Positions 4,995 to 53,268 are shown, counted from the stretch's first letter. The stretch is 64,000 bases of DNA from a virus (IMGVR_UViG_3300029305_003320:19869-83868), one strand, 5' to 3'. Numbers and translations are program-made. The notes: generated from the sequence alone by a model not told the origin.

Positions 4995-5002
4995 GTAATA
5001 TA
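4995..5002 (-). promoter_or_regulatory. phiKZ-type early promoter motif TATATTAC
   Basis: Exact match upstream of a minus-strand operon. Confidence 0.7.
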
Positions 5003-7707: not shown

Positions 7708-9279
7708 ATGAACCTATGTATTAAGAAACCTGGCATGTCTAGTGAGATAGTCACAGACAAGCTAGAGATGACAAGTATTGAGTGTGAAGCACTCGAGACC
7801 CTGTATGCTGCAGGGTTCCAGCTGGATAGTATTAGCAGAGTTATCGACAATGCTAACTTTGCTCTAGCGTGGCTGAACAGTGCAGATGATAAAAAGTCTG
7901 TAGTTGACATGCTTGAACTGGAGAAGTCCTGCGAAGGACTCATTGCCAAGATTGATGGTGAAATCACAGCAGAAGCTGCAGTTGAGGGAATCGGAGAAGC
8001 TCTAGGCAGAGCCTGGGAAGCTATCAAGTCCTGGCTTGAGAAACTGTTCACTGCTGTGTTTAATCTTATCGCAGCTATCTTTGGTGCTGATGGGATCAAA
8101 GATAACAAACAGAAGCTTACTGATCTGAAAGAGACGGCTCCTGATGCAGATATTCTTGCCAAGGCTGACCTTAAGGGATCCGGTGTAGATATCACAGCTG
8201 AGCTCATCAAAGGTCGTACAGCTCTTATAGCAGAACTACTTCCTCAGCTTCAGAAGAATGCTGAAGAACGTCTAGCTGCCGCTGAGGCTTACAAGAAGGA
8301 TCTTCAGTCTCAGGTAGAGATGGCTCGTCTAGATGAGCGTGTTAAGGCACTCCAGACACTTGTAGATAAGTCTACTGAGCTTTCTACCAAGTACAATACT
8401 GCGATGGCTGAGCTAGCATCCAAGAACAGCACTGCTGTTAACAACAATAACAACAACATTCTTGCTGGTTTGACTCCTGCTATTCTTACAGGTTTCGCCG
8501 GAGCTTATGCTGGAGCGTTTGATCCTAGTGGTCCTGCGGCAAAGATTGCAGAAACAACTAAGAAGATCAAGAAGGTCACAGAAGAGATCGAAACTGAGAC
8601 AAAGAAGCGTAAAAAGAAGCCTGAGACAGGAGATGGTGGCGGCACCACTCCAAAGCCTCCGGCACCAAATCCGAATCCCAATCCTCCTAAACCGCCTGCT
8701 CCGAATCCAAATCCCAACCCAAATCCGAAACCCCCTGCGCCTGCACCAGATCCTGTAACCAATCAGGCTCTTAAGGTTCTAGCAGATCTTGGAAAGACGA
8801 CAGCGTCTGACTTCCGCATCATTAAGGCGGAAGATAAGTACGTTGACTCTGTTTGGGGTAAGATTAAGCGCGGTGCTGGATGGGTCTGTCGTAAAGGATG
8901 GGGTGGTAGAAACATTAAGGGTAACAAGGGGCTTCTTGCTGCTGCTCGCGAGCATAACAAGACTGCAACCAGAACTGTCATGCTTTGGGCATTGCGTCTG
9001 TATGTTATCGATGCCAATGAATCTACCATCGCTGATCTAGCTCAGAAGATTGGAACTGAGACAATGGTTATCAAGGCATTCATCACTGCCCTTAGAGCCA
9101 CCGGTCTTAAGAAAACATTTGACACAGATAAAGGTGAATACCAGTGCACTGTGCCAGATGATGCTACAGCGAAGAAAATCGCTGCCGCACTTAAGATCAA
9201 ACAGACCGATGTCGAGAATATCGTCAAGGAAGCCAATAAGCTCCCTGATCCTAAGGACTACAAGCCTGAAGAGCACTAA
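7708..9279 (+). CDS. phiKZ-type internal head protein with Pro/Asn-rich linker
   Basis: Acidic N-terminal propeptide ending EAAVE/G, then an amphipathic helix (GIGEALGRAWEAIKSWLEKLF); PKPPAPNPNPN repeats near 8645-8755. Confidence 0.65.
   Translation: MNLCIKKPGMSSEIVTDKLEMTSIECEALETLYAAGFQLDSISRVIDNANFALAWLNSADDKKSVVDMLELEKSCEGLIAKIDGEITAEAAVEGIGEALGRAWEAIKSWLEKLFTAVFNLIAAIFGADGIKDNKQKLTDLKETAPDADILAKADLKGSGVDITAELIKGRTALIAELLPQLQKNAEERLAAAEAYKKDLQSQVEMARLDERVKALQTLVDKSTELSTKYNTAMAELASKNSTAVNNNNNNILAGLTPAILTGFAGAYAGAFDPSGPAAKIAETTKKIKKVTEEIETETKKRKKKPETGDGGGTTPKPPAPNPNPNPPKPPAPNPNPNPNPKPPAPAPDPVTNQALKVLADLGKTTASDFRIIKAEDKYVDSVWGKIKRGAGWVCRKGWGGRNIKGNKGLLAAAREHNKTATRTVMLWALRLYVIDANESTIADLAQKIGTETMVIKAFITALRATGLKKTFDTDKGEYQCTVPDDATAKKIAAALKIKQTDVENIVKEANKLPDPKDYKPEEH
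8645..8755 (+). repeat. Pro/Asn low-complexity repeat (PKPPAPNPNPN x2-3)
   Basis: Visible in the translation and as CCAAATCCGAATCCC-type DNA repeats. Confidence 0.8.
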
Positions 9280-9962: not shown

Positions 9963-9970
9963 GTAATATA
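9963..9970 (-). promoter_or_regulatory. TATATTAC early promoter motif
   Basis: Exact match, preceded by TTATTTAGGC (also seen at 23743). Confidence 0.7.
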
Positions 9971-10228: not shown

Positions 10229-10984
10229 ATGCTTAAATGGCTTATAAACCTATTTAGGTCTCAGGAAGCTATAGACAAAGAGACTATAGCTTCAATGAAA
10301 GGTAAGTACAAACTTGGATGCGTTGCAGTCCCTAAAGATTTTGGGACTCTTCCAAAACTTAGTTTTGGATCTACCAGGTTCCAGGCTCCTAAAACAGTAG
10401 ACCTGAGGGACTACTGCACCCAGACTGAAAATCAGGGTGATAAACCCTATTGTGCCGCGTATACAGCCGCAGGTTTTGCTGAAAATATCCTTTGGCGCAA
10501 GAATGACTATATCACTCAGATAGATCCTGTCGCTATCTACAAGCGCGCTAAACAGATCGATGGTGATCCCTATGGTGAAGGTACTTCTCTCACAGCAGTC
10601 CTTCAAGTTCTGCTTGAAAAAGGATACTTCAGCTCAAAAGAGTGCAGGATTCAGGTAATTGATAATGTATCCGGATTCGATAACTCTATCAAGTATGCTA
10701 TCCACAAGTTTGGTTGCTGCTTGTTAGCATGCAACATAACTGAGGAATGGTACCTGTGCGGTAAGAATAAGACATCCATAACAGGCAAGTCTTATAACAA
10801 TTCGCTTGGTGGTCACGCTATTCTCTGCTGTGGGTATAACGAAGATGGGGTTATTATTCATAACTCCTGGGGTGAAGAGTGGGGTCAGTATGGATTCGCT
10901 CTTATTACGTGGAGTGCTTTAAGAGCTCAGTTCCTCTATGCTGCTGTTCTTAGTAATGCGCTAAACAACATGGCGATTAAGTGA
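10229..10984 (+). CDS. Papain-family (C1A) cysteine peptidase
   Basis: VDLR...ENQGDKPYCAAY (oxyanion Q, catalytic C), GGHAILCCGY (H), IHNSWGEEWGQYGF (N). Confidence 0.85.
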   Translation: MLKWLINLFRSQEAIDKETIASMKGKYKLGCVAVPKDFGTLPKLSFGSTRFQAPKTVDLRDYCTQTENQGDKPYCAAYTAAGFAENILWRKNDYITQIDPVAIYKRAKQIDGDPYGEGTSLTAVLQVLLEKGYFSSKECRIQVIDNVSGFDNSIKYAIHKFGCCLLACNITEEWYLCGKNKTSITGKSYNNSLGGHAILCCGYNEDGVIIHNSWGEEWGQYGFALITWSALRAQFLYAAVLSNALNNMAIK

Positions 10985-10990
10985 GGGTTT

Positions 10991-12004
10991 ATGGACAAAA
11001 TTCTACTTCAAGATGTAGGATCTGAGATTATCTCGGATGCTACAGAAGCTATTCAGATTAGGGATGATATGGTTGAGCTCGGATTCTCGTCTAAAGCTAT
11101 CGACTATGTCTGCGCGGATCTGAAGCAGGCTATAACCATCATTAGGAACAGTGGAATCAAGGGTTATATCTACATGGTTGACCATGATGACGCCATGGCC
11201 GATAGGTTTAATATTCCTAAGTACGAGGCGGGTCTTTCGGTTGAAGCGCTTAAGGAATGTGAAGATAGGCACCTTAATGCCGCCATAGAAGGCCTAGAGG
11301 AATATCTCACTAGGTTCGTTGAGTTAATTAAGACGATCATTGAAAAACTCAAATCCTGGTGCAAGACTATTCTTTCGTTCAGGAAGTTCCATCTGGATTA
11401 TATCTCTAAGAACCTTGAGAGACTCTCCATGCTTCAGCCGGATACCAAGGTTAGTGGAGTAATGGGATATAAGGATGCTAACAAACTTCTTAGTGCGATT
11501 GAAGAAGTTCACAAGTATGTGAAGAGCATACCAAACAATCCTAACACTCAGGTTTCTCAGAATGGAAATCTTTTAAAGGTAATGACAGATCTTTGTCTGT
11601 CGTATGAACCTGGAGAAGACGGTACGTTCTATGTGAATAATGCTGTTGTAGGTATCTCTGAGAGGTATCCTATTAAAGAGTTGTGCACACTTACTGAAGC
11701 TGGATGGTCTGCATCTAGCGCTAAAGACTTCGCTAAGAAGTTAACACAGCAGGATTCGCAGAAGCAGTTCAATGAGATCATTGCAACTGCTGAACGTCAC
11801 GGTAAGTACGTATCTGAGTTCCAGATTGATGTTGTCAAACAGGCGAAGGAACCCAAACGTGACAGCACAGCTGCTGCTATGGTTAGATCCCATGGTTCTG
11901 TGGTGCGCATGCTTAGTAAGTTTGCTACTGTAGAACACCAGGCAGTTCTGCATTGCTGCAAGACTGTCAGAGGACTGATATCGGTAACACCTCCAATGAA
12001 ATAA
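10991..12004 (+). CDS. phiKZ-type internal head protein
   Basis: Propeptide with LSVE/A and AAIE/G sites followed by an amphipathic helix (LEEYLTRFVELIKTIIEKLKSW). Confidence 0.6.
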   Translation: MDKILLQDVGSEIISDATEAIQIRDDMVELGFSSKAIDYVCADLKQAITIIRNSGIKGYIYMVDHDDAMADRFNIPKYEAGLSVEALKECEDRHLNAAIEGLEEYLTRFVELIKTIIEKLKSWCKTILSFRKFHLDYISKNLERLSMLQPDTKVSGVMGYKDANKLLSAIEEVHKYVKSIPNNPNTQVSQNGNLLKVMTDLCLSYEPGEDGTFYVNNAVVGISERYPIKELCTLTEAGWSASSAKDFAKKLTQQDSQKQFNEIIATAERHGKYVSEFQIDVVKQAKEPKRDSTAAAMVRSHGSVVRMLSKFATVEHQAVLHCCKTVRGLISVTPPMK

Positions 12005-12588: not shown

Positions 12589-13491
12589 TTACTTGGCTTT
12601 AGCGTACAGAGTGTTCACGCACAGGACGTAGTTGTGTTCTAAAGCCATTTGACGAGTGGCTGCCATACCGTAGGCATTGTATATCAATGCGATGTCCTTA
12701 GCAACCGTGGAAATGTTGTTGATGTCTTTGGCAGTGACGGGAGGATTGTCTACATCTATTACAGAAGTGATAGATTTAAGAAGTTTCTCCATTTCGTCAA
12801 TAGACTTAGTTATACCATTTACGTCCTGCAGACGATACTCATTTGCAATAAGTGTGTTGCGGACTTCAACCCACTCCTCTATTGTAAGGAATGCTCTGTC
12901 AAATGAAATCTTGGTCATCTTGGGGCCACTGAACTGTCCCATGCAGAGATCGATTGCGGGCTTAGCTGTCTTAACTATGCCCTCTACAAGGTTAGCAGTA
13001 GTGTCAGCCTGATCTGGAAGCTTGTCGTCTCCAGAATTAAGCGAGTTCATTATCTCACGGAACGAGATAAGCACCAACTTTCCAGTGTTTACAGCGTTAA
13101 GCTTCATGTAGACGGCAATAAGAGAATCTACTGCTTTCTTATAGGTATCCTTCATGTTGGACGGGCAGTCTACCATAACCTCAACAAGTTTCTCATAAGG
13201 GAGCTTATCGACAATGCGGGTCTTCATCGTATTAGATGCATAGAACTCGTGTAGTTCGCTTCTCTTAAGAGATTTGGTGAATCTGGTCATGTTAGTTCCG
13301 AAGGTCTTAAATAGCCCGCCTATACCGTCGCAGATGGCTACGAACATCCTACCAACGATATTGGAGTTGAGCCCTTCTACTGCACCTACCTCAAGTCCTT
13401 CTGCAGCATAAACCTCTTCGATTTTAGCGCATACGGACTTATAGAATTCTAGTTCGTTCATGGTATAAATTCCTATGTTATTAAAAGTCAT
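12589..13491 (-). CDS. Probable virion head protein
   Basis: N-terminal AAE/G and AVE/G candidate prohead-protease sites; helical 300-aa protein. Confidence 0.5.
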   Translation of the reverse strand: MTFNNIGIYTMNELEFYKSVCAKIEEVYAAEGLEVGAVEGLNSNIVGRMFVAICDGIGGLFKTFGTNMTRFTKSLKRSELHEFYASNTMKTRIVDKLPYEKLVEVMVDCPSNMKDTYKKAVDSLIAVYMKLNAVNTGKLVLISFREIMNSLNSGDDKLPDQADTTANLVEGIVKTAKPAIDLCMGQFSGPKMTKISFDRAFLTIEEWVEVRNTLIANEYRLQDVNGITKSIDEMEKLLKSITSVIDVDNPPVTAKDINNISTVAKDIALIYNAYGMAATRQMALEHNYVLCVNTLYAKAK

Positions 13492-14122: not shown

Positions 14123-14136
14123 GGTAATATATTACC
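14123..14136. promoter_or_regulatory. Palindromic double TATATTAC (GGTAATATATTACC)
   Basis: Motif on both strands; the minus copy lies upstream of 13537-14091. Confidence 0.65.
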
Positions 14137-14734: not shown

Positions 14735-14837
14735 GTTTGTATCGCTCCTTACTTGCATTGTAAGGTACAAAGACCACACCACTCGGTGTGTACTATCTTT
14801 GTAACCAAGGGAATGATATATACATGAAACGGACGAT

Positions 14838-14873
14838 CTACACCTCCACGGCATCACTGCCGTGGAGGTGTAG
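14838..14873 (-). terminator. Hairpin (16-bp)
   Basis: Downstream of 14882-15694. Confidence 0.65.
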
Positions 14874-14881
14874 GTTTGTCT

Positions 14882-15694
14882 TTATACCCATTCGTAGTTC
14901 CAAACTACATATTCTGTTCCACCGTACCATTTATAGACTCTGTCTTTATCTAGTGTACGGACTTTACCTATTTGCTCATAGGTATCTCCTCTGGAAGGAT
15001 CATACCAGTTCACTATAAAAACTTCGCCTTTTTTGCTGGCAATAAGTCTTAGGAATCCGAGTATAGATCCTGTAGCCGGGCTTCTGATGGTTCCTCCTTT
15101 TTCAAAATCCAGATGGAACTTCTCTTCACTTTTATCGAATGTGGCTTTAATTAGATCTTTGTCTGGAGTTTTATTATCAGATCTAACGAGTATAACTTGT
15201 TTAGCCCTTTTCGTGAGATAATCGGACTTGGCGGCCAGTTTTAGTCTTTGTGCTGTGGCATCCAGTAAGTAGATCTCGCCTCGTATATTAACAAGATTAA
15301 AAACATGACCGCTTCCGGACTCCCATGTGGCGGAAATAATAGCTCTTGATCCGTCACCCCATTTTTTCATAGTGTTTTCAGTTCTGTTGAATATATCTTT
15401 ACCTGATATAACAACAGGATCTATCTTTTTGAACAAGTGCCACATTGCATGAGGAGACTTACTACCTTTAGGGACATCGAACACTCTGTCCCATGGCGTG
15501 TCGGTGATAGTTACTTCCTTGTCAACGCCTCTGTATTTGAGTTCCAACGCAGCTGCGAACTTCTGACAATTGTTGCCCACTTTGTATTTGCTAAGTTCCT
15601 TAAGGAATTGCTTAGCTTTCTTGATTTCTGGCGGATCGTCACCAGATGCATCTGTAGACTTATTCTCTACACTTATGCCAAAGTTAACTCTCAT
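14882..15694 (-). CDS. M-x-x-x-F-G-tagged protein with papain-fold toxin (glutamine deamidase-like) domain
   Basis: N-terminus MRVNFGISVE; NNCQKFAAALELKYRG (Cys), RAIISATWESGSGHVFN (His), YLLDAT (Asp) match the papain-fold toxin pattern. Confidence 0.7.
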   Translation of the reverse strand: MRVNFGISVENKSTDASGDDPPEIKKAKQFLKELSKYKVGNNCQKFAAALELKYRGVDKEVTITDTPWDRVFDVPKGSKSPHAMWHLFKKIDPVVISGKDIFNRTENTMKKWGDGSRAIISATWESGSGHVFNLVNIRGEIYLLDATAQRLKLAAKSDYLTKRAKQVILVRSDNKTPDKDLIKATFDKSEEKFHLDFEKGGTIRSPATGSILGFLRLIASKKGEVFIVNWYDPSRGDTYEQIGKVRTLDKDRVYKWYGGTEYVVWNYEWV

Positions 15695-15737
15695 TGCACC
15701 ACCTATACCTTACAAAGACATTCGTAGTCTTTATTCA

Positions 15738-15983
15738 TTATTTTAACAAGCGCAGACTGTAAAGTAAGTGAAGTATATTCACTGGTGAGAATTTCACAGT
15801 GAATCTGTCTGACGGATCTCTTCCGTCACTCTTGCATGTGGATAATTCTTTATCAAACTTATGCTTTATTTCTGATATCTCACTGTGATCATAATACTTT
15901 ATCGCATTAAGAGCATCTTTTATTATATTCCATAGTCCTTCAATCGATGCAGAATATGTTGGCACTCCGAAGTCTACTTTCAT
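15738..15983 (-). CDS. Short tagged protein (81 aa), possibly truncated
   Basis: MKVDFGVPTYSASIE/GLWNIIKD; AAGGAG RBS. Confidence 0.6.
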   Translation of the reverse strand: MKVDFGVPTYSASIEGLWNIIKDALNAIKYYDHSEISEIKHKFDKELSTCKSDGRDPSDRFTVKFSPVNILHLLYSLRLLK

Positions 15984-16041
15984 TTCAAGTTCTCCTTTTA
16001 AGATGGTTACATGGTCAAAAGAGAGACAACACTTAAAGGTA

Positions 16042-16077
16042 AGTTACAGAGTGCGGGGCATCCCGCACTCTGTAACT
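16042..16077 (-). terminator. Hairpin (16-bp)
   Basis: Downstream of 16088-16660. Confidence 0.65.
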
Positions 16078-16087
16078 ACATTCTAGT

Positions 16088-16660
16088 TTAGTCTTTCCGA
16101 CGGGCAAGTGTTGATACCATGAATGCATCACAACGAAATGCAAATTTGAACAGGTCAGCTGGCAATTCTGCAGAAACTCCGATTGGATTCTGTAGAGTAT
16201 CTGATGCGTAACACATTGCAATTGGTGGCATTTCGATGAATCGAAATGCGTCCTTTGTTCCACGTCCTTCAACTTCCGTGAACTTAGGTTCGAACCCAAT
16301 GTAGGTAAACCCGTTTAGTAATGTTTTCGCATATCCAAACATGCATTCATCAGTCACCGTCCACGTTGGTGGTGTAATCTCTTCAGGTTCGACATCACTT
16401 ATATCGTACGCCTTGACATTGAGCTTGAGTCCGCCACCAACATCATGCTCTCTCTTTAAAAGCATCCTGATAGGCAGATACTTGTTGATATCGCTAACAT
16501 ATACTGTTAGTATAGCAGACTTATAATCAAATGCCGTTGTAATAGCTGGTATTTGATCAAGTAGTGTGCGGATACGGTTGGCTGCTAGAACAACCGGGTT
16601 GGCTAGGTTCAGTTTTTCAGCAGCTGCCGCCTTGACGGACTTTCGTTTCTTCGTGGCCAT
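16088..16660 (-). CDS. Hypothetical protein, paralog of 56763-57356
   Basis: Shared blocks LANP, FD[YF], VYVSD, GGLKLNVK, FEPKF, EMP/EFP. Confidence 0.7.
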   Translation of the reverse strand: MATKKRKSVKAAAAEKLNLANPVVLAANRIRTLLDQIPAITTAFDYKSAILTVYVSDINKYLPIRMLLKREHDVGGGLKLNVKAYDISDVEPEEITPPTWTVTDECMFGYAKTLLNGFTYIGFEPKFTEVEGRGTKDAFRFIEMPPIAMCYASDTLQNPIGVSAELPADLFKFAFRCDAFMVSTLARRKD

Positions 16661-16728
16661 GATACTCCTTTATGTTGTTTGTAGACATAACATCTACATT
16701 GCCTTTAATTTAAGACGGGATTTAGAAG

Positions 16729-17163
16729 CTAGATGAGGACTAGACTGAGCTGCCATTTAGACAGTAGTCCCGAACTAACTATTTTCTTAATTGCACGTTC
16801 CGCACCGCCACGAGTTTTGTAGACCCTAATGCGATTGTTGTCGAACACAGGAAAACCTTTGCGCATCCCGCTATAATAACTAAGTTTGTTGGGATCATAA
16901 TCGCCTTTGTTCCCACATGTAATTTTACCTGCAATTGCCCACCGACGACAATTGCGCGCAACCCAGATGAATCCCTTACGCGATATTCCGCTTGGAAGAA
17001 ACGGAGCCGGAGGGTGTGAGTTACGAAGTATGCTTAGTGCTGAGCTAGTCATTACAAGTTCGTCGTATGTAAGGTGCTTCTTCTCCTTAGCGGCATTGAT
17101 AGGTTTGCCTGATAGTTTTGGTACAGGGTTGATAGATCGTTTCATTATCATTTCCTTTTTCAT
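16729..17163 (-). CDS. Basic hypothetical early protein
   Basis: 144 aa; TATATTAC at 17196-17203 upstream. Confidence 0.55.
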   Translation of the reverse strand: MKKEMIMKRSINPVPKLSGKPINAAKEKKHLTYDELVMTSSALSILRNSHPPAPFLPSGISRKGFIWVARNCRRWAIAGKITCGNKGDYDPNKLSYYSGMRKGFPVFDNNRIRVYKTRGGAERAIKKIVSSGLLSKWQLSLVLI

Positions 17164-17195
17164 TGTGATGGTTGTAACTATTACAACTCATATAA

Positions 17196-17203
17196 GTAAT
17201 ATA
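17196..17203 (-). promoter_or_regulatory. TATATTAC early promoter motif
   Basis: Exact match upstream of 16729-17163. Confidence 0.7.
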
Positions 17204-17224
17204 TTTCTAAAATTATAATAAATG

Positions 17225-17255
17225 GGCATCTCCTGGGCTATACCCAGGAGATGCC
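17225..17255 (-). terminator. Hairpin (13-bp)
   Basis: Downstream of 17261-17989. Confidence 0.65.
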
Positions 17256-17260
17256 GAGTT

Positions 17261-17989
17261 TTATAGTTTGCGCAGTTGTTTGTCCGTGTAAAACAGGAAA
17301 TAATCAATAATCGAATATAGCTTAATTGCCATTCTCGAGTATGTATAGAACGAACTAAAGTTTCCTATCTTGTCAGTCCTGGCTCCTGTGTCGAATGCTT
17401 TCTGCCCTTTGTACACTTTGTTAGCCATGCTGGCTTCCTTAGTGCTCTTAATCATGGTTTCCCATTTTGCAGATTTTAAAGTGTCCATGTGACTAGCAGC
17501 CCCGCGCCTAAAATCTTTGGCTATACTTGTCACGGTTGACACAGAAAGTCCCATGTCTACATAAGTCCTGTCTTTGTAGCATAGTCTACGTTTTAAAGCG
17601 TCATCTTTCTCCTCTGTTATGAGGACAAAGTTTGACATGTTCTTATCCAAGTCACCCCTTATATTGTTGAGCCTGCCCACCAGGTCGGAATACAACTTAT
17701 CAGAGTCGTTAGACTTAATCTCAGCGCGTTTTACGGCGTCAAAATTGTCAACCATGAACTTGGTTACAACTTCTGTAAATTTAGTTGCTTGGATAAGTAT
17801 GTCACCTTTAGGGCAGTAGAAGTCAATGGTTCTTCTTTCAAACTTGGCTCTCTGTTCGGGTTTTAGTGTTATAAGACTCTTGATAAGACCATCTATGATG
17901 TGTGCAGATTTACTATCTCTTGTAAAGGTGTGCTGGAGCTTTGTCCAGAATCCCTCACATGAGGGTTCTATTCCAAAATTAACCCTCAT
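17261..17989 (-). CDS. Tagged internal-head-like protein
   Basis: MRVNFGIEPSCE/GFWTKLQHTF: tag, S-x-E site, amphipathic helix. Confidence 0.65.
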   Translation of the reverse strand: MRVNFGIEPSCEGFWTKLQHTFTRDSKSAHIIDGLIKSLITLKPEQRAKFERRTIDFYCPKGDILIQATKFTEVVTKFMVDNFDAVKRAEIKSNDSDKLYSDLVGRLNNIRGDLDKNMSNFVLITEEKDDALKRRLCYKDRTYVDMGLSVSTVTSIAKDFRRGAASHMDTLKSAKWETMIKSTKEASMANKVYKGQKAFDTGARTDKIGNFSSFYTYSRMAIKLYSIIDYFLFYTDKQLRKL

Positions 17990-18575
17990 GATTCTTGCCC
18001 TCCTTCATGATGTAAGCATAATGCTCCTCATTTGTCATACCGAACCACTGCTTACATTTCTTATCTGACTCGGCTTTCATTGCTTCAGACATGAGTTTCC
18101 AATTGTTGTGTACTCTAGTCTGCTCAGCATTGTCTGGCTCTTTGTGGATCAACTCTATACCTGTCTGAGCTCTCCATGCATGAACCTTGTCATTCTTAAG
18201 TTTCTCGTAAACCTTTTCAGGATAGTGCTCTTTGATATAAGACAATTTGTAAGGTCTTTCATACTTACTCTTCTTTAGAGTTAGTACGAGTATCTTAGGA
18301 TACTTCTTAAGGATTTCTATCTGTTTATTAGTGAGCTGTTTGTAGTAAGGACTATCTTCAACTCTAGAAATCTCTCTAGCACCAACTATCTCAAAACAGT
18401 GATTGCTGTCGATAGCTTCTGCATAGACGTAGTCACCTTTTTGGAACTTGGCTGCGTCAGAACTGACTCTATGTGTGATAATAGTAGTTTGTTTCTTAAG
18501 AGAATCTATTTCGGATTTAGGGAATGATATATCCTTAACTACAACTCCGCTGCGTTCTCCAAAATTGACTTTCAT
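17979..18575 (-). CDS. Tagged protein with possible ASCH/PUA-like N-terminal domain
   Basis: MKVNFGE; IITHRVSSD...FQKGDYV pattern recalls the ASCH fold (weak). Confidence 0.5.
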   Translation of the reverse strand: MKVNFGERSGVVVKDISFPKSEIDSLKKQTTIITHRVSSDAAKFQKGDYVYAEAIDSNHCFEIVGAREISRVEDSPYYKQLTNKQIEILKKYPKILVLTLKKSKYERPYKLSYIKEHYPEKVYEKLKNDKVHAWRAQTGIELIHKEPDNAEQTRVHNNWKLMSEAMKAESDKKCKQWFGMTNEEHYAYIMKEGKNHEG

Positions 18576-19399
18576 TGTTTTAATCCTTTTGATACTAAAA
18601 TAGATATTCTACCTAGATCGGATGCCCACTGCTTATATGCATAAAATCCTTCCCTGCAGTCCATAACAGTTCTCTGAACTTTCATGAATTCGCCATCAGC
18701 AACGTCCGCTTTTGTGGCATATCCAAGTGTTTTATAGATTCCAAATGGACCTATAGATTTATCATCAGGGCCATTTCTAAAATCCAGTATCCCTGATTCG
18801 TATTTGCCATCTCCGAATACAACATTCACGAGATATTCAAAACACTTTTCTAGTTTTTCCTTTGAGTATCCTAGTTGTTTAAGAGATCCGGATTTCCTAG
18901 TAGCCTTGGAAGAGTAACTCTCAGCAGATTTTATATGATCTTCTAAAGATTTGCTGTATTTTAACTTCAAAAATTTATAGAAGCATTTTCCTACTTTTGT
19001 TGACAGCATATCTTCTTCATACCACTTATCGTCAACGGATTCTCTTGAGTTTTGAGCTGAAGCATAAGCTTTGAAGTCTGATACAGTTAGTTTGCTAAAC
19101 TCCAGCACTAATGGCTGTACCTCTTTATTTAAGAGTTTTAAAAGCGGATCTAGAGTAGTTTCAAGAAAGTGTGTTACCTGATCTGCTGAAGGTATATCTC
19201 CGGAAGGTGTCATTTCTAATATTTTACCTACAGTGCTCTCAGACGCCGATTTAAGATCATTCGACATCTTAGAGTAATAGCTTTTAATAAAATCTGCTGT
19301 AGGATCTTTGGATTCCTTTTTTGTAAAAATGGACTTTATTTTATCCAAAAGACCTTCCTCAGACATTTCAACAATAGGAGTGCCAAAATTTACTTTCAT
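18572..19399 (-). CDS. Tagged internal-head-like protein
   Basis: Start moved to MKVNFG (ATG 19399, GAGGA RBS); MSEE/GLLDKIKSIF. Confidence 0.65.
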   Translation of the reverse strand: MKVNFGTPIVEMSEEGLLDKIKSIFTKKESKDPTADFIKSYYSKMSNDLKSASESTVGKILEMTPSGDIPSADQVTHFLETTLDPLLKLLNKEVQPLVLEFSKLTVSDFKAYASAQNSRESVDDKWYEEDMLSTKVGKCFYKFLKLKYSKSLEDHIKSAESYSSKATRKSGSLKQLGYSKEKLEKCFEYLVNVVFGDGKYESGILDFRNGPDDKSIGPFGIYKTLGYATKADVADGEFMKVQRTVMDCREGFYAYKQWASDLGRISILVSKGLKQ

Positions 19400-19468
19400 T
19401 GTTAAATCCTCATTATGAAATTTCTCTGAGCACAAAAAGAAGAGAGTGCCTGTTAGGCACTCTCCAGG

Positions 19469-19987
19469 TTATTTCCCTTGTCCGACTGTTACGTTTGGTT
19501 TTACAAGACTTGGGGCGTTTATGTCATCCAGCCAAGCGAAGTACCTCTTGATACAGTCTCCAAGCTTTTTCTGTTTTTCTTCTATAGCTTTACGAGTCAG
19601 CCAGTAGATACCACCACACTTCTCAGTTTCAACGTTCTTTGGCTCTCCGTTGAATTTAACAACTTTAAAGATGTGCACTTTGTCAGGGATGGTCTTTCCT
19701 TCAATTTCGTATTCCCTCTGGAACTGAAGTATCTCCATAAAGTTCTCAATCTCAACGGCAAGCTCTTCTTTATTCTCGGCTATTAATGCCTCAGTAACAG
19801 CTTGGTCTGGCTTTACCTTGCCTATAGGGAAAGTTAGCTGCTCGTATTTCTTGTGCAGCATCACTAGATACTCGAGATCACTTTTATCTTCAGTATATCT
19901 GGTGAATATTGCAACCACAGATTCATGAGGTTTCTTATCTTCTTTGTTGATAAGTTTATTATCCTCTGTTCCAAAGTCAATTTTCAT
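19469..19987 (-). CDS. Tagged Nudix-fold protein with degenerate Nudix box
   Basis: MKIDFGTE; FPIGKVKPDQAVTEALIAENKEELAV versus the GX5EX7REUXEEXGU consensus; C-terminal NVETEKCGGIYW. Confidence 0.7.
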   Translation of the reverse strand: MKIDFGTEDNKLINKEDKKPHESVVAIFTRYTEDKSDLEYLVMLHKKYEQLTFPIGKVKPDQAVTEALIAENKEELAVEIENFMEILQFQREYEIEGKTIPDKVHIFKVVKFNGEPKNVETEKCGGIYWLTRKAIEEKQKKLGDCIKRYFAWLDDINAPSLVKPNVTVGQGK

Positions 19988-21006
19988 TTGTTCTCCTTGG
20001 ATTTTTCTGGTTTACACGTCATTATCTTGGATCCTTTACGGCAGAATGATTCGAACTCGACCATATCACATCCGTATTTTGGGTATCCGTTAAGTTCGAA
20101 TACTTGAATGTCAGTTTTCTCCATGTTTGCCATTGCTGTGCCAATCCACTTAATTAACTCATTTGGATTCTTGGTTTTCCAGTTGTTGTTCTTGAAAGGT
20201 CCCCAGGACCCTTCAAGCCATTTCCATTGGTCATCAGTATCCCAATATATCAAGAACGTGTGCGTTGGGCAGTCCATAAACCCACCGTTCTTATCAACCA
20301 TGAAGAATGTTCTAAACTGAATCCCCTTTGCCTTCTTGAGATACTCTCTGCTTATGGCGACAGTATCGTAGCAGTTTCCTATTCCTGACTTTATCGTCTC
20401 TTCTGGAGTAGCAAGTCTCCATTCCGAGTCGTAGTCCTGCCATCTAGTATTCTCATGTGACTCGTTCCATGGCTTGTTAGTTTTAGGGTCTCTTAGACCA
20501 TATCGGATATTCTTGAATATATCCTTGATAGTCTCGACTTCCGTCTTTACGACTTCAAACTCTTTGTCCCACAAAGTACCTTCATATTCAGAGCCGTCAG
20601 GCTTCTTGGCTTTGAATGTGTGTTTGCCACCAACAGAGGTGATCTTTATTTTTTGGAGATACTTAACCGTTACAGGACATGTTACCCAGACTTCACCTGT
20701 AAGCACTACATCTGGAACTTGATCTTTTGTAGGCTTAGTTATGTGTTTAAGCAAATTGTCCTTATCTTTATCTTGAAGGTCTATAGTGAAAACATAGATT
20801 TCAGTCCCTACGTAGTTCTTGCCTATGGCTCTAAGACAGTTTTTGATTGAACTACTAAAAGAGACTCTCGGAGTCTTTCCGTCCTCTATTCCCATCTTAA
20901 CGTATTCGTTGTCAGGGACTCTAGGGAATAGTGTTGTACCATTGATATTCTTTCGAGATATGTGGTACAACTTTGGGACATCTCTAGTCCCGAAGTTTAC
21001 TTTCAT
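19984..21006 (-). CDS. Tagged two-domain protein: ART-like N-domain plus transglutaminase-like C-domain
   Basis: MKVNFGT; LYHIS...PRVSFSSS...GEVW (ADP-ribosyltransferase-like strand motifs); GNCYDT...THTFLIY...WLEGSW (Cys-His-acid). Confidence 0.55.
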   Translation of the reverse strand: MKVNFGTRDVPKLYHISRKNINGTTLFPRVPDNEYVKMGIEDGKTPRVSFSSSIKNCLRAIGKNYVGTEIYVFTIDLQDKDKDNLLKHITKPTKDQVPDVVLTGEVWVTCPVTVKYLQKIKITSVGGKHTFKAKKPDGSEYEGTLWDKEFEVVKTEVETIKDIFKNIRYGLRDPKTNKPWNESHENTRWQDYDSEWRLATPEETIKSGIGNCYDTVAISREYLKKAKGIQFRTFFMVDKNGGFMDCPTHTFLIYWDTDDQWKWLEGSWGPFKNNNWKTKNPNELIKWIGTAMANMEKTDIQVFELNGYPKYGCDMVEFESFCRKGSKIMTCKPEKSKENK

Positions 21007-21054
21007 GGTTAAATCTCTCTTTCATTGCTGTAATAAATAGACATACCATCGTTG

Positions 21055-21086
21055 GTCCATCTACCGGATTACACCGGTAGATGGAC
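21055..21086 (-). terminator. Hairpin (13-bp)
   Basis: Downstream of 21097-21552. Confidence 0.6.
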
Positions 21087-21096
21087 TTTATAGACG

Positions 21097-21552
21097 TTAT
21101 TTGTCTTTCTTCTCTTTTTCTTCGAGTTCTTTTATTCTAGCATTCAACTCATCGAACCCCTTCTTGGACAGAGGCTCTCCAGTGTCTGGGTCCATTTGAA
21201 TGGCGCTGTCATCGCAGAATCCGATCATGAAGCAATCCTTCTCAGACGTGACTTCTAGTTCGACACCTATGTGCTTCTTACACCATTTCTTAATGACATT
21301 GGCCATGTCTTCATAAGAAACATTATTGATACTTCTAGACACATGGGACAGTCTTGCAGTGAATACTTTAACTACTATGCCCTTTGCAAGCCACCCTTTA
21401 ACTCGTTCTACCATTTTCGGAATAGGATCTCCTATTACGTCCCATCCTTTAAATGTATCATAACTTGCAAGAGTTCTATCTAAGTCTACTCCTATCCAGG
21501 GGGGATAATTAGGTTTCTCTTCCTTGGACTCTACTCCAAAATTAATCTTCAT
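21097..21552 (-). CDS. Tagged HAD-superfamily phosphatase (PNKP 3'-phosphatase-like)
   Basis: MKINFGVE; WIGVDLDRT (motif I), VFTAR (II), KD (III), DD (IV). Confidence 0.75.
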   Translation of the reverse strand: MKINFGVESKEEKPNYPPWIGVDLDRTLASYDTFKGWDVIGDPIPKMVERVKGWLAKGIVVKVFTARLSHVSRSINNVSYEDMANVIKKWCKKHIGVELEVTSEKDCFMIGFCDDSAIQMDPDTGEPLSKKGFDELNARIKELEEKEKKDK

Positions 21553-21635
21553 TAAAACCTCCTTATGGAATGGTTATAATCGAAAAAAAAGAAACCGCCA
21601 CAAAGGCGGTCTCTCGTGTGGTTCCGATGCAATTA

Positions 21636-22078: not shown

Positions 22079-22672
22079 TCACTTCTGCTGGGTTTTCCAT
22101 TCCAGGTAGTTGTCATGCAGTACGTTCTTATGGACATGGTTATACAGGTCCATTGACACTCCTAGATTTGCATAGTCACCAAGCGGAGGAATGCGAAGCG
22201 TCTTGACCCAATATTCTCGATTGAAGAAATTTTCAACCACATCAGGCCGCTCAGCTTTTAGACGATCTGCAAATGCACTTGCCTGTGCAGCATACACAGT
22301 TCGTAGATTAGGATCATCTACCAGATGAATAGTCTGTAAAACCTTTCCATCCAGTAAGAACTTGCTGTCTTCGACAAGCTCTTCATCGGGGTTTCCACCT
22401 TGATCTGGAACAGCAATACCTGCGCATGTCCATCCGTAGAATCCGTCGAGATCATCCTCTTTACCGTATACCAATCCGCAATTTCCTTTGAAGAAATTTT
22501 CTGACTGGTTCCTCCATGTGTCTAGACATAGCCATAGGTTGAAGTCTTTGAACGGAATTTCATCTTCCTTCTTTAGCATGACATATACGCAAACACGGAC
22601 GTTTATTGCGTCATGGCTACATACTATTAAGTCGGATAACTCTAGTGGAGGTTTGGAAACTTTAATTTCCAT
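22079..22672 (-). CDS. Hypothetical protein
   Basis: 197 aa; AAGGAG RBS; operon context. Confidence 0.65.
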   Translation of the reverse strand: MEIKVSKPPLELSDLIVCSHDAINVRVCVYVMLKKEDEIPFKDFNLWLCLDTWRNQSENFFKGNCGLVYGKEDDLDGFYGWTCAGIAVPDQGGNPDEELVEDSKFLLDGKVLQTIHLVDDPNLRTVYAAQASAFADRLKAERPDVVENFFNREYWVKTLRIPPLGDYANLGVSMDLYNHVHKNVLHDNYLEWKTQQK

Positions 22673-23742: not shown

Positions 23743-23750
23743 GTAATATA
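23743..23750 (-). promoter_or_regulatory. TATATTAC early promoter motif
   Basis: Exact match upstream of the small ORF 23559-23702. Confidence 0.7.
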
Positions 23751-23818: not shown

Positions 23819-24499
23819 TTAGTGCCAGAAGTTACCGAGATTTCTTGGTTGCTCTACTCGTTTCCACCGAGCCATCGTGCGATTGGCTTCGAGCTTCTCG
23901 AGATAGCTTGCAACCCTCCATCCGGTAAAGATCTCGAATGATGGCATGTGCCGCATGAGATCACTGGCTTGAGTCACCAATCCCTTGTACATCCTGCGGA
24001 TATGGTTTACCGCAGTTGGCATGGTCTTAGGACTTGGAAATACGCAGCAGGCACAGCCTGATGCGCTCTCCGTTAGGAACTCTACAAGATCGACGACACC
24101 TTTGTGGGTTATCACCTGCTTATGTGCCTCAAGTTTCCCTGTGGCCACAGCCCGTGAGATGATTCCTCCGGTTATGATACCATATGCTTCGCGAAGTGCA
24201 TCTTCGAAGATTATCTTACTCACGTCCTCACGCTTAGTGAGTGCTTTACGAAGAACATCAAGGAGAATAGGTTTCTCCTCAAAATCCTCCCAGCTCTCAA
24301 TAAGCGAGATTCCAGCTTTCAAATCATCTTCAAACATGATAGGATTAGCCTTACGCTCCTGCAGAAGCATACCCATATCGACCCAGCGGCTGCCGCCGTT
24401 GTAGTCGATCTTCATGATTCCAAGAGGAACTTCCCAGAGACTGCCAGAGTCGCCCTGAATAGTCGCCTTTCTGTTCCTAAAGTCGAACTTCCTGATCAT
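23819..24499 (-). CDS. Hypothetical early protein
   Basis: 226 aa; AAGGA RBS; promoter at 24532-24562. Confidence 0.65.
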   Translation of the reverse strand: MIRKFDFRNRKATIQGDSGSLWEVPLGIMKIDYNGGSRWVDMGMLLQERKANPIMFEDDLKAGISLIESWEDFEEKPILLDVLRKALTKREDVSKIIFEDALREAYGIITGGIISRAVATGKLEAHKQVITHKGVVDLVEFLTESASGCACCVFPSPKTMPTAVNHIRRMYKGLVTQASDLMRHMPSFEIFTGWRVASYLEKLEANRTMARWKRVEQPRNLGNFWH

Positions 24500-24531: not shown

Positions 24532-24562
24532 GTAATATATAAACAAAAAGAAATGAAGTACA
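24532..24562 (-). promoter_or_regulatory. Bipartite promoter TGTACTTCA-N12-TATATATTAC
   Basis: Variant upstream box, same spacing. Confidence 0.65.
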
Positions 24563-27430: not shown

Positions 27431-27438
27431 GTAATATA
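27431..27438 (-). promoter_or_regulatory. TATATTAC early promoter motif
   Basis: Exact match upstream of 26807-27409. Confidence 0.7.
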
Positions 27439-32701: not shown

Positions 32702-32811
32702 CTCTTCTCCTTCATCTCCTTGGGTAATATAAAAAGATTCCTATCAAAAGATAGTGGGCTTAGTAATTATCAACAGAGTGGTGGGATTTATCCCACCACT
32801 CTGCCTGTAAC

Positions 32812-53260: not shown

Positions 53261-53268
53261 GTAATATA
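53261..53268 (-). promoter_or_regulatory. TATATTAC early promoter motif
   Basis: Exact match upstream of 52785-53225. Confidence 0.7.

Follow-up and report, generated by a model that had tools for sequence, protein, structure and literature searches.

A six-residue N-terminal tag shared by eight unrelated proteins of an uncultured giant phage, a probable capsid-targeting signal

Eight open reading frames (ORFs) in a stretch of viral DNA of 64,000 nucleotides (IMGVR_UViG_3300029305_003320:19869-83868) begin with the same hexapeptide tag, M-[KR]-[VI]-[ND]-F-G, and all of them lie on the minus strand in one 6.7-kb cluster (14882-21552). We refer to the whole stretch that was analyzed as the window; it is part of a virus contig of 83,868 bp (G000). 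Judging from its sequence context, the hexapeptide probably (at roughly 70%) serves as the recognized element of a short capsid-targeting propeptide that can be removed, in a head system of the phiKZ/SPN3US type. The ORFs starting at 15694, 15983, 17989, 18575, 19399, 19987, 21006, and 21552 begin MRVNFG, MKVDFG, MRVNFG, MKVNFG, MKVNFG, MKIDFG, MKVNFG, and MKINFG, respectively, exactly as an earlier reading of the sequence (the original prediction) had listed them. The tagged genes are given below, where P1 is the residue number of the Glu of the candidate cleavage site, AF2 stands for AlphaFold2, and pLDDT for its predicted local distance difference test score.

21097..21552, minus strand: HAD-type phosphatase-like protein, 151 aa, MKINFG, G-V-E with P1 = 8; WIGVDLD motif and PHROG matches of phosphatase type
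19984..21006, minus strand: two-domain protein, 340 aa, MKVNFG, no nearby S/A/G-x-E; AF2 pLDDT 86
19469..19987, minus strand: Nudix hydrolase, 172 aa, MKIDFG, G-T-E with P1 = 8; NUDIX PF00293, E 5.6e-7
18572..19399, minus strand: helical protein, 275 aa, MKVNFG, S-E-E|G-L-L with P1 = 15; no family match
17979..18575, minus strand: ASCH-fold protein, 198 aa, MKVNFG, no canonical cleavage site; AF2 pLDDT 88
17261..17989, minus strand: helical protein, 242 aa, MRVNFG, S-C-E|G-F-W with P1 = 12; no family match
15738..15983, minus strand: helical protein, 81 aa, MKVDFG, S-I-E|G-L-W with P1 = 15; no family match
14882..15694, minus strand: papain-fold toxin 1/glutamine deamidase (Gln_amidase) protein, 270 aa, MRVNFG, S-V-E with P1 = 10; PF15644, E 1e-7

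The regular-expression check proposed in the original prediction was run in six frames on the whole contig, and we found that M[KR][VIL][ND]FG occurs eight times, each time as the start of one of the eight ORFs. Only one further [KR][VIL][ND]FG was present in any frame, as an internal SKINFG, and the frequency of the tag is far above chance. The 18 tag-coding bases vary synonymously among the eight copies and the DNA 5' of them is dissimilar, which bears out the claim that the peptide is conserved and not a DNA repeat. A Shine-Dalgarno-like AGGA/GGAG stands 5-10 nt 5' of the ATG in most of the eight genes. Past residue 16, no pairwise similarity was detected among the eight proteins by blastp (all E > 0.2), so that they are as unrelated as had been proposed. 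The AF2 models showed a pLDDT below 50 at residues 1-7 of the 340-aa protein and residues 1-4 of the ASCH-fold protein, indicating that the tag lies outside the fold. Three known kinds of leader were considered and rejected. For a double-glycine (C39) leader the tag is too short, and relatives do not keep Gly6; a prepilin-type leader would have G-F where the tag has F-G, as well as a hydrophobic segment, which the tag lacks; and a Sec, Tat, or lipoprotein signal would need a hydrophobic core, which is missing from the peptide. Just upstream of the cluster, two minus-strand genes have looser tag-like starts, 22079-22672 (MEIKVSKPPLE..) and 23819-24499 (MIRKFDF..), which are conserved in the relatives L147, G001, and L142 (MNIKVSKPPLE, MIVRFDY, MILRYDY); these two genes may belong to the tagged set as earlier or diverged members.

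The proteins that carry the tag (hereafter cargos) are mostly recognizable enzymes. Among the classes named in the original prediction, the papain-fold toxin, Nudix, HAD, ASCH, and transglutaminase assignments stood, and the likeness to ADP-ribosyltransferase (ART) was weak. Foldseek matched the C-terminal domain of the 340-aa protein to transglutaminase (TGase)-like cysteine proteases (CPR-C4, LapG, and vasohibin) and its N-terminal domain weakly to ART toxins (CARDS and PltA), and residues C212 and H249 are invariant. For the AF2 model of the 17979-18575 protein, the top Foldseek matches were the ASCH folds PH0355, ZmASCH, and YqfB; an ESM Atlas search with the same protein was uninformative. 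In many relatives (P0016, P0022-P0031), the ASCH and TGase-like domains form one tagged protein of 350-490 aa, and in the window they are separate genes; relatives also have the TGase-like domain by itself, at about 200 aa and behind the local tag. The cargos are thus shuffled at the level of domains as well. In the relative L142 (9812-10852), an in-frame stop after 56 codons splits the ART/TGase gene, which is called as two genes, one for the N-terminal stub with the tag (MKVNFGKDSV..) and one for the remaining 283 aa.

A Glu was found at residues 7-16 in seven of the eight tagged proteins, and six of the eight have [SAG]-x-E with P1 at residues 7-16, compared with 16 of 89 untagged proteins (Fisher p = 0.0015). 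Both the early Glu and the (S/A/G)-x-E site claimed by the original prediction were therefore recovered. The site is conserved in relatives: [SAG]-x-E is present with P1 = 7-14 in each of the 19 full-length orthologues of the deamidase (SVE, SIE, AIE, ALE, SFE, SME, ATE, SLE, and GIE), with varying tag and linker, and orthologues of the 242-aa protein retain [SA]-x-E|GFW.KLQH after tags of differing sequence and linkers of 12-16 residues. In the proteome, [SAG]xEG[LFIVMW] occurs at 15 sites compared with 5.6 +/- 2.4 in shuffles, and eight of the 15 are in the head block. An EG-hydrophobic motif had been reported as common to tagged proteins and the head proteins at 7708 and 10991; we confirmed it there and found it in the 12589 protein as well, the [SA]-x-E|G-hydrophobic site lying at residues 31-100 of these three untagged proteins. 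A 1465-aa protein encoded at contig position C1:19399-23796 (up to 3928 in the window, plus strand) carries, besides A-L-E|G-I-K at residue 12, four further [SAG]xEG-hydrophobic sites; its residue-12 site is D in the related contig G001 and may be due to chance.

The tag was also found on a protein of a known phiKZ head family. In L147, a near-identical strain whose HAD protein is 98% identical to that of the window, a 368-aa protein that begins MKVNFG and has S-V-E at residue 13 matches PF12699 (phiKZ_IP) with 33.1 bits (cut-off 27). A PF12699 protein of G001, also above the cut-off (27.9 bits), begins MALKFD. None of the eight tagged window proteins matches PF12699, and they share the tag alone with this family, of which they are not members. 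The tagged PF12699 gene of the sibling strain lies just upstream of the homologue of 12589-13491, and the tagged cluster of the window adjoins the PF12699-like head genes, which are given below with the 12589 gene of the head block.

7708..9279, plus strand: candidate phiKZ_IP-like internal head protein; PF12699 21 bits, below the cut-off; S-C-E|G-L (76) and A-V-E|G-I (93)
10991..12004, plus strand: second weak phiKZ_IP-like head protein; PF12699 below the cut-off; A-I-E|G-L at 100; paralogue of the 7708 protein (E 5e-4)
12589..13491, minus strand: head-block protein; A-A-E|G-L at 31 and A-V-E|G-L at 39

The candidate protease comes from the same lineage. At G001:16414-17247, we found a Peptidase_S80 gene (93.5 bits on PF20034; E 1.4e-9 against gp175, the head protease of phiKZ), which adjoins a terminase and a phiKZ-type virion protein. 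Its neighbors at G001:C1:14506-17946 (L137) are two ClpP-like genes, phrog_1827 and phrog_1684 ('ATP-dependent/head maturation protease'), and the large terminase is nearby, so that three protease-type genes are together in the head module of G001. PF03420 (T4 gp21, Peptidase_S77) had no match in G000 or G001, and neither the phiKZ major capsid protein nor chimallin was detected in them; both contigs are fragments, and missing markers are no evidence of absence. In the window, a papain-family cysteine peptidase (10229-10984, plus strand; PF00112 E 3.3e-7, phrog_16701 'peptidase') lies between the two PF12699-like genes and is kept in both G001 and L149; this could be a second protease associated with the head.

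Homologues of the HAD protein showed the tag to be an add-on. About 107 outside homologues begin 3-8 residues before WIGVDLDGT, and 13 members of the clade have an extension of 17-21 residues with the tag at its start. We compared the tag between genomes and found that each has its own flavor: [KR]-[VI]-[ND]-F-G in the window and L147; x-hydrophobic-K-F-x in G001 and L142 (MKVKFE, MAVKFS, MALKFD, MIKFAT); x-hydrophobic-K-L-x in L145 (MRVKLS, MAIKLQ, MVKLQL); MISYSCEAL, on two different cargos, in L143; and K/R-Y-S/T in L131 (MPLKYSVE, MPFKYTLE, MALKYS). The mean identity of residues 2-6 was 0.45 for different cargos of the same genome versus 0.08 for the same cargo in different genomes, the pairs not being independent. 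The type of tag (F, L, or Y) tracks the genome and not the cargo, as a shared, co-evolving receptor predicts.

A portable, disordered, and genome-specific add-on would suit any shared receptor, and the tag could address another destination or partner, such as a phage nucleus, a vesicle of early infection, a route of export, or a chaperone or assembly factor used in common, with the PF12699 proteins merely using the same partner. Nudix, HAD, and GNAT enzymes could work inside the infected cell, and some tagged proteins have no protease site. We regard this explanation as unlikely, because the same tag is borne by PF12699 proteins, a family that is packaged and N-terminally processed in phiKZ and SPN3US, because an S/A/G-x-E of S80 specificity is kept directly after the tag, and because the peptide is neither hydrophobic nor like a Sec, Tat, or lipoprotein signal. 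A capsid-targeting propeptide remains the preferred reading.

Alignment of the window with strain L147 showed a role of the tag-coding DNA that the original prediction had not contained. Gene order and content differ between the two strains: L147 has a GNAT gene and a TGase-only gene in place of the ART/TGase fusion of the window, is without the ASCH and 81-aa genes, and has the 275-aa gene at another location. At the junctions 21006 and 18575, identity spans the upstream gene and ATGAAAGTNAAYTTYGG and then ends, with unrelated cargos after it. At the junctions 17989, 19399, and 15694, unrelated upstream DNA is followed by identity from the ATG on. Identity over the 275-aa gene extends from its ATG (J4) to 17 nt inside the next gene (J2). 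A total of five junctions break exactly at the 17-nt tag-coding sequence; this sequence is the boundary of the cargo cassettes and probably also their crossover point.

These exact breaks of homology are what would be expected if the conserved sequence were mainly a DNA recombination joint for in-frame exchange of cassettes and the peptide itself were inert. We consider this improbable, because the eight copies vary synonymously with the peptide kept, and the pattern of the peptide persists in distant lineages that use other codons and flavors. Moreover, a DNA joint needs neither a following S/A/G-x-E nor an aromatic residue at position 5, and it leaves the tag on single-copy orthologues over long divergence unexplained. 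The capsid-targeting reading accommodates a joint as a second use of the same 17 nt.

The cluster is divided into units by terminator-like hairpins, one upstream of the first tagged operon and others at 19441-19465, 17225-17255, and 14835-14876. The hairpin at 17225-17255 sets off an untagged two-gene insert, which is preceded by a motif, TATATTAC, known as a phiKZ promoter motif (PMC7058600). This motif occurs 10 times in the window compared with 2.3 expected, nine times on the minus strand just upstream of genes. None of the 10 motifs precedes a tagged gene, and TATATTAC marks a class of genes to which none of them belongs. Inspection by eye did not yield a late-promoter motif shared by the tagged operons with the head genes. 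These features are as follows.

21589..21615, minus strand: terminator-like hairpin upstream of the first tagged operon
16088..17163, minus strand: two untagged genes (16729-17163 and 16088-16660), a separate unit inside the cluster, with untagged N-termini
4995-5002, 9963-9970, 14124-14131, 17196-17203 (the one before the insert), 23743-23750, 24532-24539, 27431-27438, 32724-32731, and 53261-53268, minus strand: TATATTAC motifs

That the hexapeptide is an N-terminal expression or stability element of co-regulated genes (early-codon context, N-degron, or co-translational modification signal) is very improbable: position-2 Lys/Arg codons are frequent in highly expressed genes and the cargo genes are co-oriented and partly translationally coupled, but the invariant Phe-Gly, the flavors, the PF12699 link, and the conserved protease-type site would be unexplained, and neighboring co-transcribed untagged genes manage without the tag. 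In each of four faecal-metagenome runs, one contig departs from the window at 17215, at the edge of the untagged insert, and another departs at 20649, within the part of the 340-aa gene that encodes the ART-like domain, which suggests co-existing strain variants of the cluster. Mapping of these four runs gave contig fragments of 2-4x and no joints.

The Peptidase_S80 protein of G001, the PF12699 matches, and the enrichment of the TATATTAC motif assign the source, as far as gene content tells, to an uncultured giant phage of the phiKZ/SPN3US type, and the best-matching sequencing runs were metagenomes of animal faeces, with no RNA run listed among the matches. G001 (= L023) is the one sister contig in IMG/VR, with 131 kb at a CheckV completeness of 49%, which gives a genome of about 270 kb; contigs of 253-281 kb that bear orthologues are present in the protein collection. 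A pattern scan of IMG/VR with ATGAAAGTNAAYTTYGG returned 119 single matches, nearly all of them chance or unrelated families, and only L023 was a true relative. A related-locus search with two neighboring proteins found only G001 and one contig of 25% identity, the latter without the tag, and a representative search with the tagged phiKZ_IP protein gave only five matches. That protein of L147 weakly matches PhiPA3 gp098, which is the sole touch on a cultured phage.

From the sequence-level facts above, we infer the following course of docking, packaging, cleavage, ejection, and enzyme action. The tagged proteins would be made outside the TATATTAC gene class, along with the internal head proteins. 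The flexible N-terminal peptide, which is probably strand-like because hydrophobic and polar residues alternate, would dock on a core component of the assembling prohead, so that any carrier of it could be built into the prohead. The S80 (gp175-type) protease would then cut after S/A/G-x-Glu, 2-9 residues past the tag, and free the cargo; cargos without a site would retain the tag. At the next infection, the cargo would leave with the DNA and could act before any phage gene is expressed. The ejected set would comprise the deamidase-type toxin domain, the ART-like/transglutaminase-like protein, the Nudix, HAD phosphatase, and ASCH proteins, and in relatives GNAT acetyltransferases, for which an anti-defence or host-takeover role is suggested by domain identity. 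Recombination at the tag sequence may swap cargos in frame between strains, because each cassette begins with the same ~17 nt, and the locus would stay hypervariable.

Several observations weigh against the capsid-targeting reading. The ASCH and ART/TGase cargos (two of the eight) have no plausible S/A/G-x-E site, nor do several orthologues (MIKFATKDEQ.., MKVNFGKDSV..), so that not every tagged protein can be cleaved. No PF12699 match was obtained for the three helical proteins of the set, described as head-type in the original prediction. Neither an S80 nor an S77 protease was detected with the gp175 query or PF03420 on the contig of the window itself, a 32% fragment, PF20034 not having been searched there. 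Cultured phages gave no match by blastn of the cluster or tblastn of two proteins, the pairs behind the flavor statistics are not independent, and six residues are too short for a claim of homology with the propeptides of T4 or phiKZ. On the other side, the modular head-loading tag of the original prediction is supported by the presence of the tag on a PF12699 protein, by an S80 protease encoded in the lineage, by conservation of S/A/G-x-E, and by the nature of the tag as an add-on with a genome-specific flavor. We also put forward, tentatively, that the tag is a minimal and self-sufficient signal for loading and release, read by a co-evolving core receptor, whose 17-nt code doubles as an in-frame recombination joint for trading injected enzymes. 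If this were true, it would be a natural plug-and-play cargo system for loading chosen proteins into giant-phage heads.

The protein that giant phages of the phiKZ type deliver along with their DNA amounts to tens of megadaltons. To our knowledge, no rule by which proteins are selected for loading is known in giant phages, long propeptides being the sole lead. The present lineage would offer such a rule in nearly bare form, as a hexapeptide, a brief linker, and a site for the protease, attached to at least six enzyme folds that are unrelated. It also has natural controls built in, namely untagged outside homologues, orthologues of other flavors, and strains that have exchanged cassettes at the tag. 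These features point to a co-evolving receptor and suggest a compact tag for giant-phage head loading, and the list of cargos may serve as a catalogue of candidate host-modifying enzymes acting at time zero (deamidase-type, ART-like/transglutaminase-like, Nudix, HAD, ASCH, and GNAT).

In comparison with known systems, a short tag common to enzymes in phiKZ-type phages was not found described in our literature search. There are precedents in the T4 internal protein (IP) locus and in the comparison made for SPN3US gp53/gp54, and the idea is less new than the original prediction implied. In phage P1, the accessory Dar proteins are loaded into the head, delivered with the DNA, and act at time zero; their loading follows a hierarchy of partner proteins (DarA/Hdf) and involves no shared short N-terminal tag. 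The present cargos are likewise an accessory set with proposed delivery by the head, and the sequences are unrelated to those of P1. According to Iyer et al., as cited in PMC7824862, polyvalent proteins carry ART, GNAT, and peptidase effector domains that are thought to enter the cell with the DNA; those are giant multidomain polypeptides, whereas here there is one small tagged gene per domain. Polymorphic toxin systems differ in that their shared part is a large N-terminal trafficking domain and not six residues, combined with a variable toxin at the C-terminus and an immunity gene beside it. The deamidase and ART/TGase genes end next to the following tagged gene or overlap it, and neither has a small immunity-like gene after it.

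The capsid-targeting sequence (CTS) of T4 is sufficient for the packaging of foreign proteins (PMC9026906). Like the CTS of IPI-III and Alt, the present element is an N-terminal peptide of about 10 residues on otherwise unrelated proteins located, here by prediction, inside the head; it runs, in six of the eight proteins here, to an x-Glu, which is the prohead protease site in T4 and a predicted site here; and, as in the T-even IP locus, the content varies between strains. Unlike in T4, there is no S77 profile match and the lineage encodes an S80 protease together with PF12699 proteins, the core of the tag is six alternating and probably strand-like residues, the site is S/A/G-x-E and not L/I-x-E, and the cargos are mostly recognizable enzymes. 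The element may work like the T4 CTS/IP system; it is not a member of that family.

The closest likeness is to the IP propeptides of phiKZ and SPN3US. The element falls among the S80/PF12699 head systems of these phages, in which short N-termini in common had been known from IP paralogues only. As quoted in PMC5694885, phiKZ gp93 is processed at SLE-13. Reading the genes directly, we found ..S-L-E at residues 11-13 of gp93, gp94, gp95, and gp97, and in the 55% of the phiKZ genome that was scanned, an early S-[LIVM]-E N-terminus was present only on these four. In SPN3US, the PF12699 paralogues gp53 and gp54 have an identical 15-residue N-terminus with AXE-12/SXE-15, MANFVKSKLARESVE, which its authors likened to the CTSs of T4 as 'reminiscent' of them, and gp243 is required for the loading of both proteins (PMC5694885); by analogy, gp243 suggests the type of docking partner to expect. 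Most SPN3US propeptides have 111-254 residues (PMC10052503). Like these propeptides, the present system involves PF12699 proteins (in L147 and G001) and an S80-type protease (in G001), and its first predicted site, as read from the genes, agrees with theirs in position and type; it differs from them in that a short tag with genome-specific flavors is carried by at least six unrelated enzyme folds.

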